Shown here one piece after another: positions 10,513 to 34,002 of a DNA stretch of 37,437 nt; position 1 is the stretch's first letter; each line of letters begins with the position of its first letter. The notes beneath the pieces were generated by a model. That model did no database searches and was not told the origin of the DNA. It saw only the letters and a program-made list of their open reading frames with translations. Position numbers and translations under genes: made by a program. Location of the stretch: positions 1 through 37,437 of the forward strand of contig CAYLOA010000010.1 in NCBI GenBank assembly GCA_964385185.1, in the 5' to 3' direction. The DNA is from an uncultured Methanosarcinales archaeon. Lineage in GTDB: Archaea; Nanobdellota; Nanobdellia; Woesearchaeales; CALCXY01.

Positions 10513-10558
10513 TTAATACCGCTACTTTTTTATACTATATGAAGAACTAATATCATGT

Positions 10559-10632
10559 GGACCTGTAGTATAGTCTGGATAGTACGGCCGGCTTCGGACC
10601 GGCAAACCGGGGTTCGAATCCTCGCAGGTCCG
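10559..10632 (+). tRNA. tRNA-Arg(TCG), no intron, CCA not encoded
   Basis: Acceptor GGACCTG/CAGGTCC, anticodon arm GCCGG-CTTCGGA-CCGGC, T-arm CGGGG-TTCGAAT-CCTCG. Confidence 0.95.
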
Positions 10633-10687
10633 TGTTTCTTTTTTGTACCATTAACTTTATAAACGAAACAGCATCAAGGTAATCTAG

Positions 10688-13394: not shown

Positions 13395-13523
13395 AAAGTA
13401 AAGGTAATGGCTCGCTCAGCGACCCAACTCTCACGGCGCCTCATTAAAGTAGCGCCGTGAGTATAGTCATTTTTTCCAGCCATCACTACTGTGCCCTGTG
13501 GGCACCAGTAGTAGTGGTGGCTG
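13395..13523 (-). ncRNA. Unrecognised structured element, copy A
   Basis: Minus strand: CAGCCACCACTAC-TACTG-GTGCCC-ACA-GGGCAC-A-GTAGTGATGGCTG, then CTCACGGCGC/GCGCCGTGAG, then AGTTGGGTCGC-TGA-GCGAGCCA, then TTTACTTTT; covaries with copies B and C. Confidence 0.7.
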
Positions 13524-13569
13524 ATACAATTACATTAAATATATTATTAAGGATTTACTAAGAAATTAT

Positions 13570-22024: not shown

Positions 22025-22159
22025 GTGGAGATGCCGGAGTGGCCAAACGGGATAGATTGTTCCAAGAAATTGGATAAGTCCTAGCTTAGGTCGCCCAGGT
22101 GTGGGCGTAAGGTACCTATTGGCTTAGTGTCTACGGGAGTTCGAATCTTCCTCTCCACA
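22025..22159 (+). tRNA. tRNA-Leu(TAG) with two introns (22056-22083 at 30/31; 22091-22113 at 37/38)
   Basis: Acceptor GTGGAGA/TCTCCAC+A and long variable arm; removing both introns gives ATAGG-CTTAGGA-CCTAT; both junction pairs form bulge-helix-bulge motifs. Confidence 0.9.
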
Positions 22160-22204
22160 TCATTTTTCTTTTAATTTTTGTAGATCTGGAATAGTTGATG
22201 GCTG

Positions 22205-22320
22205 AGTCACCACTACTACCGGCATGCACAGCATGCAGTAGTGGTGATTGTGTCTTACTCTGAGGGCTCGCAGTCGTAAGACTGCGAGAGTTGGCACTCT
22301 GTGAGTGCCATTTTACTTTT
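22205..22320 (+). ncRNA. Unrecognised structured element, copy B
   Basis: AGTCACCACTAC-TACCG-GCATGC-ACA-GCATGC-A-GTAGTGGTGATT, then CTCGCAGTC-GTAA-GACTGCGAG, then AGTTGGCACTC-TGT-GAGTGCCA, then TTTTACTTTT. Confidence 0.72.
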
Positions 22321-22657
22321 ACTTACAGTGTTTTTAAGAAAATAGAACAAAAATAACTCACTTTTACCTAATGCCTAACTTAAATCTGTGATAGTTGGCT
22401 CATTTGCCTCAAAATACCCCTATTTTTGGGCTAAATGAGCACTCTTTATCAGATATATTATATAGTTGTAAAATTATACAGAAATACCGTAAAATGGAGC
22501 TAAAAATGAGTGTTTTTAAGAGGAGAACAATCATCCACAATAAACCGTGTGATGAAAATAAACTACTTAGTAGTGATAAAGTACTGAAGTTGTTGAATTC
22601 TAATAGTACAAGGCTTGTAGAGCAAAATACACCATATAATGGAGATAGTGCTTACGA

Positions 22658-31270: not shown

Positions 31271-32050
31271 ATGAGTAGTTTAGGATTTGTTACAGAAGTG
31301 GCTAGAGGAGCTGCATTAATTACGCAGAGAGATTTTGCATCTGGAGATTATACAATTGAATGTGTGGATGGAAAGAATGTCACCTCTACTGAATTAGAGA
31401 TTGCTAAAATGGTTGAAGATCAGGTTGGCTTATCAAAATGTCACAAGGCTGACATATTAAATGAAGATACTTCGAATACTCCTTTAGAGGGTTCTTATTG
31501 GATTGTAGATAATATTGACGGGACTGAAAACTTTGTACATGGTCTTACACCATTCAGTTTTGCTATGGCTAAAATTGAAAATAAAGTTACTAAAGCTGCT
31601 GCAGTATATGATCCTATACGTGATCATTTATACGTTGCTTGTAATGAAAGCAATGCTCAGTTGAATGGAAAAGATATTCATGTTTCAGATACGACTCAAT
31701 TAGATAATGCTGTAATTGGATTTGATACACTAATGAGTACTGAAGAAGCTCGGAAACGAGGGGTAGAAGCATTTGGTGCCCTAGTTTGTGCTGAAGTGAG
31801 TGTGAGAAAATATAATTCTGCAGCTTTGGATATATGTAAAGTTGCTGCAGGAAATTTGGATGGTTATGTCTGTCCTAACAAAGGTTATTTTTCTCCTTGG
31901 GACTTTATTGCTGCTGGATATATCTTAGAGAGAGCTGGTGGGAAGTTAACAAATTTTCAAGATACATGGAAAGGTGTAGAATTAGAAGATAGATTGGCTA
32001 GTAATGGTGTTTTACATGATGAATTATTAGAAGTGGTTAAAGTAATTTAA
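31271..32050 (+). CDS. Inositol monophosphatase family protein
   Basis: WIVDNIDGTENF, SAALDICKVAAG, PWDFIAAG. Confidence 0.88.
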   Translation: MSSLGFVTEVARGAALITQRDFASGDYTIECVDGKNVTSTELEIAKMVEDQVGLSKCHKADILNEDTSNTPLEGSYWIVDNIDGTENFVHGLTPFSFAMAKIENKVTKAAAVYDPIRDHLYVACNESNAQLNGKDIHVSDTTQLDNAVIGFDTLMSTEEARKRGVEAFGALVCAEVSVRKYNSAALDICKVAAGNLDGYVCPNKGYFSPWDFIAAGYILERAGGKLTNFQDTWKGVELEDRLASNGVLHDELLEVVKVI

Positions 32051-32754
32051 TCCAAATGAATACTATGTTCTATGGTGCCTACGATTAAAGCAACGATTGC
32101 TAACATAATAAATGCAGAAAGTCCTGTTGGTGTGAATAACATTCTTCGAAAAGGATCAGCTGAGAAGGTAACTCTTCCAGAAGGAGGTTGGTAATTAAAA
32201 TTGTCTATTTGTACAACTCCTCCTGTGATTGCATCTCTATTTAATAAAATATCATCAATGGATTCAAACTTTTGAACAACTTTATCGGGATCACCTACGG
32301 TGATAAATCCCCTAGCACCATAGATAGCTTCTTGACAAAGATATTCTCCATCTTCTGTGAATGTGAATGAGAATGATTCTCCTGGGAAGAAGTTTTCTGA
32401 TTTCAGGAATCTGTTTGGTCCTCTGTAACAAGCAATTAAAAACATTTTAGAATCGTCCGCATGAGTCCAAGTTACTTTAGTTCCTTTTTCGATGGTAATA
32501 TCGGGTTGATCATATTTTCCCCAGTAGGTGTTGATATTGATGTCTGTTGAAACAGGTTCTAATTGTGTTGGCTCTGTTTCAACTTCAGTTGGTTCTACTG
32601 GTTCTTCAATAGCTACTAATGGTTTTGGATATTCTTTATTCATCGTTTCTTCTGAAGCTGGTAAGCTTATGAAAATCATAATTGCTGCTATAACTACAGC
32701 CAAAATAACAAAATGGAATTTAGAAGCGTGATGAGGCTTTTGAATAGTAGGCAT
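32047..32754 (-). CDS. Membrane-anchored cupredoxin-fold protein
   Basis: N- and C-terminal TM; ITIEKGTKVTWT...PGESFSFTFTEDGEYLC. Confidence 0.75.
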   Translation of the reverse strand: MPTIQKPHHASKFHFVILAVVIAAIMIFISLPASEETMNKEYPKPLVAIEEPVEPTEVETEPTQLEPVSTDININTYWGKYDQPDITIEKGTKVTWTHADDSKMFLIACYRGPNRFLKSENFFPGESFSFTFTEDGEYLCQEAIYGARGFITVGDPDKVVQKFESIDDILLNRDAITGGVVQIDNFNYQPPSGRVTFSADPFRRMLFTPTGLSAFIMLAIVALIVGTIEHSIHLD

Positions 32755-32823
32755 AAGTCTATTTTGAGATTAAGTGTATATAAAGTTTTGGATTAAGTTT
32801 TGTGAATAGGTAAATAGTGTTGT

Positions 32824-32971
32824 AGACAGCACCACCACCGGCACCCACAGGGTGCAGTGGTGCTGTCTGATACAATGCCCACTGGGCGTTGCCCTTACAT
32901 TTCCAGCTACTGGTCTGGAAATGTAGATGGGCTGGCTCACTGTGTGAGCCTGCAAGCTCAGTGGGATTGTA
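32824..32971 (+). ncRNA. Unrecognised structured element, copy C (extended, multibranch)
   Basis: AGACAGCACCAC-CACCG-GCACCC-ACA-GGGTGC-A-GTGGTGCTGTCT; enclosing stem 32871-32892/32952-32971 around TACATTTCCAG/CTGGAAATGTA and GGCTGGCTCAC-TGT-GTGAGCC. Confidence 0.7.
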
Positions 32972-33043
32972 GTAAAATTAATGGTAAAATGCAAAAGAAC
33001 TATGTAGAAACATTTATAAAGCCCCTAACACTCCACAACTATT

Positions 33044-33223
33044 ATGAAAGAAGAACCAGACAGCAAATTTATCAAAGTACGTTGTCCAAAATGCAAAAAC
33101 GAACAGATCCTCTACGGAAAGGTTTCTACCCAAGTGAAATGTCTTGTCTGTGAAGAGCTCCTAGCAGAGCCAACTGGCGGAAAAAGCAAGGTCAAGGGCA
33201 GAGTCTTAGAGGTTTTAGAGTAA
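33044..33223 (+). CDS. rps27e: 30S ribosomal protein S27e (not in ORF track)
   Basis: PDSKFIKVRCPKCKNEQILYGKVSTQVKCLVCEELLAEPTGGKS; TAATG overlap with the aIF-2 alpha gene. Confidence 0.96.
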   Translation: MKEEPDSKFIKVRCPKCKNEQILYGKVSTQVKCLVCEELLAEPTGGKSKVKGRVLEVLE

Positions 33224-34002
33224 TGCTATTACAAAAACAGGGATTCCCTGAAGAGGATGATATGTTGTTGTGTACTGTCACGGCAGTGCATCACCATTCT
33301 GTTTTTGTAAAATTGGAAGAGTACGGTAAGAGCGGTTTAATCCACATTTCTGAAGTGAGTCCGGGAAGGATTCGTAATATTAGAGATTATGTAAAAGAAG
33401 GAAAAGTAATAGTTTGTAAAGTTCTTCGAATCAATAAAGATAGAGGTCATATCGATCTGAGTCTTCGTAGGGTAAATGAAGGTCAACGAAGAAATAAGAT
33501 GGAAGAGATCAAGAAAGAACAGTTTGCTGAGAAAGTGATCCAAGGTGTTGCAAAACAATTCAATGTGAATGGTGAGCAACTCTATAAAAAAATCTACGAA
33601 GTTATTAGCAATGAATATGATTTAGTCTATCCTTATCTAGAATCTTTATCTGAAGGGTCTGAAGATGTAGCTAAACTTGATTTAGATGATCAAATTGCAA
33701 AATCATTAGTGGAAACTGTGGCTGATAAAATCAAGCCTGAAGTAATCCATATCCAAGGACGGTTTACCCTGCGAAGTTATGCAGAAGATGGTCTTCAACG
33801 AATCCAAAGCACTTTAGTTGCTGCAGAGAAAACTTGTAAAGATGCTGCTATCACCTATGAAGGTGCAGGAAACTACAAAGTAAGAGTTGAATCTACTGAT
33901 TTTAAAGATGCAGAAAAGAAATTAAGTAAAATAGTTGATCAAGTTACTCAGGTGTTTGAAAAGAATAATGATTTTGCACAGTTTGCAAGGGTGGAAGAAT
34001 AA
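33223..34002 (+). CDS. eif2a: Translation initiation factor aIF-2 alpha
   Basis: S1 domain GLIHISEVSPGRIRNIRDYV..IDLSLRRV; conserved operon position. Confidence 0.95.
   Translation: MLLQKQGFPEEDDMLLCTVTAVHHHSVFVKLEEYGKSGLIHISEVSPGRIRNIRDYVKEGKVIVCKVLRINKDRGHIDLSLRRVNEGQRRNKMEEIKKEQFAEKVIQGVAKQFNVNGEQLYKKIYEVISNEYDLVYPYLESLSEGSEDVAKLDLDDQIAKSLVETVADKIKPEVIHIQGRFTLRSYAEDGLQRIQSTLVAAEKTCKDAAITYEGAGNYKVRVESTDFKDAEKKLSKIVDQVTQVFEKNNDFAQFARVEE

Follow-up and report, generated by a model that had tools for sequence, protein, structure and literature searches.

Structured mosaic repeats of the repetitive extragenic palindromic (REP), bacterial interspersed mosaic element (BIME) and BOX kind are a bacterial theme. 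Pneumococcal BOX elements, for example, are built from boxA, boxB and boxC sub-modules in a fixed order, fold strongly, occupy intergenic positions and have no transposase of their own. CGTC-tagged REPs and Rickettsia palindromic elements are presented as structured palindromic repeats for which no cognate transposase was found (PMC3733652). Here, we characterize an archaeal element, copy C, within a 37,437-nt stretch of DNA (contig CAYLOA010000010.1, positions 1 to 37,437; "the window") from an uncultured marine member of the Woesearchaeales, whose assembly of ~1.3 Mb is rated 100% complete by marker genes. Copy C consists of a hairpin termed P1 (32823-32869) and an adjacent three-way junction (3WJ; 32871-32971), and forms a GC island of up to 57% G+C (120-nt window) in a genome of 35% G+C. 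It probably represents the P1 and 3WJ modules of a lineage-restricted, mosaic family of GC-rich structured intergenic repeats that is REP/BIME- or BOX-like and includes a third major module, BP23. As judged from the observed folds, covariation, copy numbers, narrow distribution, site turnover and missing own promoters, copy C is most likely inserted structured DNA, and neither a riboswitch nor a stand-alone RNA gene.

The family resembles REP/BIME repeats (REPINs) in its short, GC-rich imperfect palindromes, which are intergenic, lineage-specific and of the class present in tens to hundreds of copies, in its mosaic and inverted-pair arrangements, and in keeping structure while stem sequence varies. 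The GTAG (or CGTC) tetranucleotide at one end of REPs has a possible counterpart in a GTAG-like foot of part of the P1 copies: an AG located 2-3 bases before a CAC repeat is at least 70% conserved, and the full GTAG is found in few of the 25. It differs from REP/BIME repeats and their REP-associated tyrosine transposases (RAYTs) in its archaeal host, its 15-25 copies per module and the lack of a Y1/HUH (RAYT) gene, and from REPs in that one module is an 88-nt three-way junction, not a simple hairpin. Given that the genome has no Y1/HUH transposase, the family is not a member of the REP-RAYT system. With BOX elements it shares interchangeable sub-modules, strong folding, intergenic location and the lack of an own transposase; unlike them, it resides in an archaeon, has no sequence relation to BOX, and its modules also occur singly and inverted. 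CGTC-tagged REPs and Rickettsia palindromic elements are alike in being structured palindromes without a found transposase (PMC3733652), and, compared by description, differ in their other terminal motifs, bacterial hosts and frequent location inside genes.

Folding of the plus strand of 32815-32975 with RNAfold gave a minimum free energy (MFE) of -89.4 kcal/mol, compared with -56.9 +/- 4.1 kcal/mol for 200 dinucleotide shuffles (z = -8.0), none of which was as good (0/200). The minus strand folded about equally well (-87.2 kcal/mol; z = -10.1), folding as single-stranded DNA gave a z of -7.7, and the architecture was unchanged in both cases. In the MFE structure, the P1 hairpin has 13 bp separated from a further 6 bp by a 5/1-nt internal loop, and is capped by an ACA triloop (C-ACA-G). 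The components of the 3WJ were assigned on the plus strand by MFE and covariation. Its closing helix pairs 32871-32887 with 32956-32971 (16 bp, with a single bulged G at 32877 and one G-U) and encloses P2 (32891-32932), a long hairpin with a conserved 2-nt AG bulge and a conserved loop (mostly CTAATGG, CTACTGG in copy C), as well as P3 (32934-32950), a 7-bp hairpin with a C-TGT-G triloop. An earlier note on this DNA, made from the sequence alone, had described P1 followed by a multibranch fold at these positions, which the RNAfold check confirmed. The enclosing stem it proposed is present in the MFE structure over the two strands given above; the innermost extension it added (GCGTTGC/GCAAGC) is not, and over the 15 3WJ copies of the genome this extension was 71% paired against 68% for shuffled columns, with 151 of 500 shuffles scoring as high. 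The outer TACAAT of the closing helix is private to copy C.

The module families were defined by BLAST and iterated nhmmer searches of the organism's own 1.3-Mb assembly (G000), which yielded 25 copies of P1, 15 of the 3WJ and 23 of BP23. A covariance model of the 3WJ recovers the 15 genome copies at 84-99 bits and matches copy C at 32878-32965 with 94.7 bits. BP23 is a 9-bp hairpin with a GNRA loop, followed by AGTSGG, a P3-type hairpin and a pyrimidine-/T-rich tail. P3 with its C-TGT-G loop is common to the 3WJ and BP23; reverse-complemented, it corresponds to the tip of P1 (C-ACA-G). All three families are intergenic, their copies being spread over more than 30 contigs beside housekeeping genes. 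The modules combine in several ways: P1 adjoins the 3WJ in two of 15 copies (copy C included), an inverted BP23 adjoins two of the 15, BP23 follows P1 in six P1 copies, and four inverted P1 pairs are found (contigs C5, C6, C11 and C19). Two further composite copies lie in the window. Copy A (13396-13526, minus strand) consists of P1 (13478-13519), a P2 variant with a long loop, P3 and a T-rich tail, and copy B (22201-22335, plus strand) of P1 (22208-22248), BP23 (22267-22309) and a T-rich tail. The earlier note had taken copy C for the element shared with A and B plus an extra stem. Instead, A and B are P1 with a BP23-type unit and copy C is P1 with a separate 3WJ; since 13 of the 15 3WJ copies occur without P1, the enclosing stem belongs natively to a distinct module, as its closing helix.

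The 3WJ fold is strongly supported by covariation. Across the 15 copies, 95.1% of 493 alignment cells were paired, compared with 77.3% after shuffling, and compensatory changes were seen in 23 of 33 pairs; sliding the partners by 1-3 columns reduced pairing to 30-43%. Compensatory changes affected 9/10 pairs of the closing helix (helix 1), and P3 was paired in 100% of cells, with three of its seven pairs compensatory. In the P1 alignment (A3), 91.4% of cells were paired and 12 of 19 pairs showed compensatory changes. Sequence or position is also conserved for the loops, for the AG bulge in P2 and for the two P1 bulges of 3 nt and 1 nt (a single G). As to strand, the earlier note had argued that G-U wobbles favor the plus strand. 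This holds for the 3WJ, with 17 G-U against 5 A-C combinations (three of the five in the outermost pair), but not for P1, where 5 G-U stand against 17 A-C (nine from a single column pair next to the bulged G) and the opposite strand is favored. Since 3WJ and P1 favor opposite strands, the strand signal across the composite is not coherent.

Several known RNA motifs were considered for the fold. Searched against Rfam at gathering scores, the whole window returned a tRNA as its sole match, and at E-values up to 10 the interval 32700-33100 returned chance-level microRNA and snoRNA matches only. K-turn, H/ACA, C/D, bulge-helix-bulge (BHB), hammerhead and omega-RNA were dropped by eye against consensus features, Rfam being the only formal test. 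A loop-to-junction pseudoknot pairing the UGG of the P2 loop with a CCA in J3-1 was likewise judged by eye and rejected; copy C has no partner for it.

The family has a narrow distribution. The 3WJ covariance model found no match in 60 relatives (one of the same genus, 59 from other families of the order), and none in the same-genus genome even at E ≤ 1, that genome being 77% complete. A 3WJ pattern scan over one genome per GTDB species gave 59 single matches, mostly in GC-rich bacteria, which are chance matches given that the best of them scores 30 bits with the model. The exact P1 pattern was met 21 times in the own genome and not once in 400 other genomes of the order (258 genera). Viral contigs gave no match to the 3WJ pattern and nine to the P1 pattern, none of the nine with a complementary tip stem. 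In metagenome contigs, the pattern met 103 stretches, and of the 80 retrieved, 26 match the 3WJ model at 71-102 bits. Eighteen of these derive from the same organism (99.8-100% identity over 0.9-1.2 kb), and eight from a sister lineage known from metagenome contigs only, whose flanking genes are 70-86% identical. On the sequences searched, the repeat family thus appears restricted to this archaeon and one sister lineage. In full-text literature searches, no account of a comparable family from DPANN or Woesearchaeota-like archaea was met.

The sister lineage allowed orthologous sites to be compared. Its contig L120 is the ortholog of the copy C site, with both promoters and both coding starts aligning and P1 plus 3WJ in between, so that the synteny check proposed in the earlier note found copy C conserved there. 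L120 folds into the architecture of copy C (-100.6 kcal/mol; z = -11.2), and its stem differences in the P1 tip, the closing helix and P3 are compensatory. Identity is 87% (40/46) in J1-2 and P2, 78% in P3, 69% in P1 and 41-52% in the two spacers. The outer 6 bp of the copy C closing helix are unmatched in L120. The earlier note had also pointed out that TACAA of this helix could pair with TTGTA at the base of P1. This is possible in copy C but not conserved in the ortholog, where P1 is lengthened by GUAG/CUAC and no strand is common to P1 and the junction.

Other sites differ in content between the two lineages. The C21 and C30 sites carry P1 and BP23 in this genome and P1 and 3WJ in the sister lineage; at the tRNA-Val site, an inverted BP23 and a different 3WJ variant are found here, and P1 with a 3WJ 91% identical to copy C in the sister; the C40 site holds an unrelated hairpin here and an inverted 3WJ there. 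At the C23 site, shared anchors lie 31 nt apart in this genome, compared with 139 nt in the sister lineage (L166). The difference equals a complete 3WJ with its closing helix; no target duplication is evident, and divergence blurs the borders. Such filled, empty and swapped sites bear out the earlier suggestion of an inserted element. In the same-genus genome, the rps27e spacer contains another GC hairpin and neither P1 nor 3WJ, both contigs ending inside the spacer. Finally, the P3 variant GGTGCAC occurs in three of the eight sister-lineage copies and in none of the 15 of this genome; this lineage-specific variant suggests that the modules may be homogenized within each lineage.

Likeness to miniature inverted-repeat transposable elements, or MITEs, lies in small, non-coding, multi-copy insertions with terminal complementarity and in the filled and empty site between sister lineages. 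However, the terminal arms of the 3WJ vary and co-vary, whereas MITE inverted repeats are conserved. No parent insertion sequence (IS) was found, the contig with the sole DDE transposase (C58) lacking modules, and a target-site duplication was not seen at the one comparable site, with its blurred borders.

Copy C lies between divergent genes, as the earlier note had observed. The left gene (32047-32754, minus strand, start at 32754) encodes a 235-aa protein; rps27e (33044-33223, plus strand, start at 33044) is directly followed by aIF2-alpha (33223-34002). The three were taken from the list of open reading frames (ORFs), and the names rps27e and aIF2-alpha were read from the translations. To locate promoters, we used a 20-column matrix with the core AAACCTTTATATA, trained on the upstream regions of 515 ORFs of the own genome. 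It begins 38-40 nt before the ATG in 160 of the 515 genes, a spacing that suggests most genes to be leaderless. The matrix places a B recognition element (BRE)/TATA promoter of the left gene at 32774-32793 on the minus strand (score 17.6; TATA box at 32777-32784), with a predicted start exactly on the ATG at 32754; this box is also present in L120. The rps27e promoter, at 33004-33023 on the plus strand (score 15.6), sits between the element and the gene, has its predicted start at most 1 nt from the ATG at 33044, and is kept in L120. Its strong match TTTATAAA at 33013-33020 corresponds to the box that the earlier note had assigned to rps27e at about 33013. The candidate bidirectional box at about 32776, in turn, is the minus-strand promoter of the left gene, and no sense-strand match faces the element. 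Since both promoters put transcription starts on their ATGs, copy C falls outside both canonical transcripts.

The same matrix argues against transcription units of the modules themselves. Counting matches of more than 7 bits whose predicted transcription start lies at most 35 nt upstream of a module, we found no sense-strand promoter for any copy (0/15 3WJ, 0/25 P1, 0/23 BP23; 0/63 in total), and a match on the opposite strand for one of the 63, compared with 6.4% of random intergenic positions (n = 3000). As a positive control, 22 of 30 tRNA genes had a promoter match, with a predicted start usually 1-3 nt ahead of the mature 5' end. The "independently transcribed RNA" of the earlier note is therefore not borne out. 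A promoter matrix checked on a genome's own tRNA genes may serve as a cheap discriminator of RNA genes from repeat modules. For 11 of the 15 3WJ copies, the next gene has its promoter downstream of the module, with a predicted start 46-104 nt past the module end. The next promoter match follows P3 by 20-32 nt in nine of 23 BP23 copies, and a divergent predicted start is found at -65 to -73 in six of 25 P1 copies. Such regular distances are most simply explained by there being little dispensable DNA in these spacers.

Similarly, placement roughly follows the available intergenic space. Of 50 classifiable copies, 21 lie between divergent, 27 between tandem (17 co-oriented, 10 opposed) and two between convergent genes, with 13 of the 63 unresolved; by length, divergent regions make up 31% of intergenic sequence, tandem ones 58% and convergent ones 11%. 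With respect to tandem genes, the modules show a weak orientation bias (17 vs 10 over the three families). The genes that follow 3WJ copies encode GrpE, a dTDP-sugar dehydratase/reductase, an ABCE1-like ATPase, a DUF4145 protein, an HD hydrolase, GatC, a GDE_C protein, LOG-like and AlaX-like proteins, a histone and a protein without family, in addition to rps27e and tRNA-Val. Being functionally unrelated, they argue against a common leader or riboswitch.

Together, we favor the view that copy C is a composite of inserted repeat modules. P1, 3WJ, BP23 and the rarer units would act as discrete units of insertion and deletion that fill short non-essential DNA, either from a stop codon to the next promoter or between divergent promoters, and that may be gained, lost and exchanged between sites while being kept similar within a lineage. 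The hairpins would be what is copied or recognized. A folded single strand, of DNA or of read-through RNA, could serve as the substrate of a putative spreading or recombining protein, as REPs do for RAYT, which would explain why the stems co-vary and the loops and bulges stay fixed. Effects on neighboring genes, such as a block to read-through or protection of 3' ends, would be secondary. The co-varying three-way junction, the lack of an HUH transposase and the exchange of modules at orthologous sites are unusual features, and they would make this 1.3-Mb genome a compact system for asking how structure-dependent repeats spread. For screens of AT-rich archaea for RNA genes and riboswitches, the lesson is that GC-rich co-varying folds can be repeat modules.

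Several observations weigh against this view. No mobilizing enzyme was found among the families searched: the genome gave no match to the Y1/HUH transposase family PF01797 (six control genomes were positive), to TnpB (PF07282) or to reverse transcriptase (PF00078), and the single DDE transposase (PF01609) lies on contig C58, which has no module. For a REP-like family, tens of copies are few. Only a single filled/empty site is resolved, with borders blurred by divergence, and movement itself was not observed: DNA runs show the arrangement of the window, along with contig breaks and cross-joins at repeats, and no skip of copy C is listed among them. The excess of G-U pairs in the 3WJ would fit a role as RNA as well as one as single-stranded DNA. 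Lastly, the rps27e copy is far better conserved than its spacers (87% vs 41-52%), which would also fit, and leaves room for, a host function such as insulation or termination.

A more specific, tentative version of this view is that the family constitutes an archaeal analogue of REP/BIME whose modules, the 88-nt three-way junction among them, are moved and swapped at promoter-proximal sites without HUH/RAYT in this DPANN-type archaeon and its sister lineage. A putative new protein, possibly a structure-specific tyrosine recombinase, could mobilize them, and some copies, for instance the conserved one before rps27e, would perhaps act as insulators or terminators. Five matches to PF00589 (Phage_integrase) are present in the genome, two of them full-length (~275-280 aa); candidate tyrosine recombinases are located at C16:450-923 and C34:8921-9412.

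Of the alternatives to inserted repeat modules, the best surviving, albeit rather improbable, one is that the modules are host-selected structural punctuation, i.e. interchangeable hairpins that end or block read-through or protect mRNA 3' ends and for which only stability and position matter. Between tandem genes, the 3WJ is found 16-35 nt past the stop codon with no T-tract between, in line with a position in a 3' untranslated region (UTR) or between cistrons. The pyrimidine-rich BP23 tail contains T runs, with the next promoter match close behind P3 in the nine copies mentioned, and a given site can hold differing hairpin modules in related genomes, as does the rps27e site of the same-genus genome; the conservation of the rps27e copy above its spacers points the same way. 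However, by manual reading, eight of the 15 3WJ copies, copy C included, are flanked by divergent promoters, so that no canonical transcript runs through them (automatic counting gives four divergent and four unresolved). Moreover, no T-tract follows the 3WJ, orientation bias is weak, and most intergenic regions have no module. A purely thermodynamic role would also not require the conservation of loop and bulge sequences.

We consider it unlikely that P1 and 3WJ form a ~150-nt plus-strand small RNA, transcribed from a bidirectional left-gene TATA box or from a promoter that the matrix does not recognize. The P1 base follows the TATA box at 32777-32784 by ~36-39 nt, the spacer between them has no indels relative to the ortholog though only 52% identical, the six P1 copies with a divergent promoter have it at a similar distance, and G-U pairs of the 3WJ favor the plus strand. 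Yet the count of sense promoters (0/63) falls below that at random intergenic positions and far below that at tRNA genes, 13 of 15 3WJ copies have no P1 in front, and several reside inside operons. In addition, the 3WJ lacks a following T-tract, pairing of P1 is better on the opposite strand, orthologous sites differ in their module composition, and no Rfam family matches. The sole metatranscriptome with any of a 2-kb stretch of this region contained 6% of the sampled words; it consists of contigs only, in which the organism is barely present, and is uninformative on the element. These contigs touch 32005-32155 and three other short places, none of them in the element, and contigs cannot show where transcripts start or end.

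Very unlikely in our view is that the modules are attC-like, structure-specific recombination sites for a tyrosine recombinase of the genome. P1 has extra-helical bases on one arm (the 3-nt bulge and the single G), conserved foot pairs and co-varying stems, whole modules are exchanged at fixed sites, and the Phage_integrase matches would supply candidate enzymes. In contrast to integron attC sites, however, there are no gene-cassette arrays here, the modules being scattered on more than 30 contigs beside housekeeping genes, and no attC-like core sites were seen when judged by eye against the attC consensus. Moreover, any archaeon would be expected to encode one or more Xer-type recombinases.

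A cis-regulatory leader of rps27e/aIF2-alpha, be it a riboswitch or a ribosomal (r-) protein autoregulatory site, can hardly be upheld even though the element lies upstream of rps27e on the same strand, is strongly structured and is conserved in one sister lineage, because the rps27e promoter downstream of it, at leaderless spacing, leaves it outside the mRNA (as the earlier note had argued in part), the 3WJ precedes functionally unrelated genes and tRNA-Val, the module is absent upstream of rps27e in the same-genus genome, and a term search of the consulted part of an r-leader survey returned no S27e leader.

Besides the three major families, additional units were noticed. Some BP23 copies (for example at C3:34531-34664 and C39:4560-4700) have GC-rich extra modules beside them, namely a hairpin of the form GTCTCAA...TTGAGAC and stretches with GCGAAGCC that lie upstream of P2. 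Since such extra modules adjoin BP23 copies, the mosaic family would have more than three module types. A GC hairpin whose arms are CCCCCT and AGGGGG and whose loop is ACAWGGTA exists as one copy in this genome (C40:6530-6600) and is also present upstream of rps27e in the same-genus genome (G001:C62; L209 ~2510-2545); sites of this hairpin carry 3WJ or P1 plus 3WJ in related lineages. Upstream of P1, a common C-poor 5' extension containing TTTTGTGAA was seen in the window (32791-32819), at C19:8020-8055 and at ~455-490 of the sister-lineage contig L172. This P1 subfamily carries the extension as part of its unit, which would there be longer than the hairpin.

With respect to neighboring genes, the 235-aa product of the left gene has predicted hydrophobic stretches at its N- and C-terminus and no Pfam match at E ≤ 1e-5. 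In the vicinity of tRNA-Val and a 3WJ copy, fragments of a tyrosine-recombinase gene were noted (C6:15681-15758 and C11:12177-12365); DNA at these two places is ~92% identical and may be a remnant of an integrated element.

For the tRNA genes (e.g., 10558-10633 and 22025-22159 of the window), the predicted start is mostly 1-4 nt before the mature 5' end and rarely more, so that tRNA leaders would be very short. An archaeal RNase P RNA is present nonetheless (C4:27459-27795; 144 bits). Copy B begins 46 nt past the intron-containing tRNA-Thr(TGT) gene (22025-22159), which is the only real Rfam match around that copy. Its intron measures 53 nt, and the gene was missed by ARAGORN without intron mode and by the whole-window Rfam search at gathering scores. 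Introns of 15-83 nt were called in 11 of the 30 tRNA genes of the genome.

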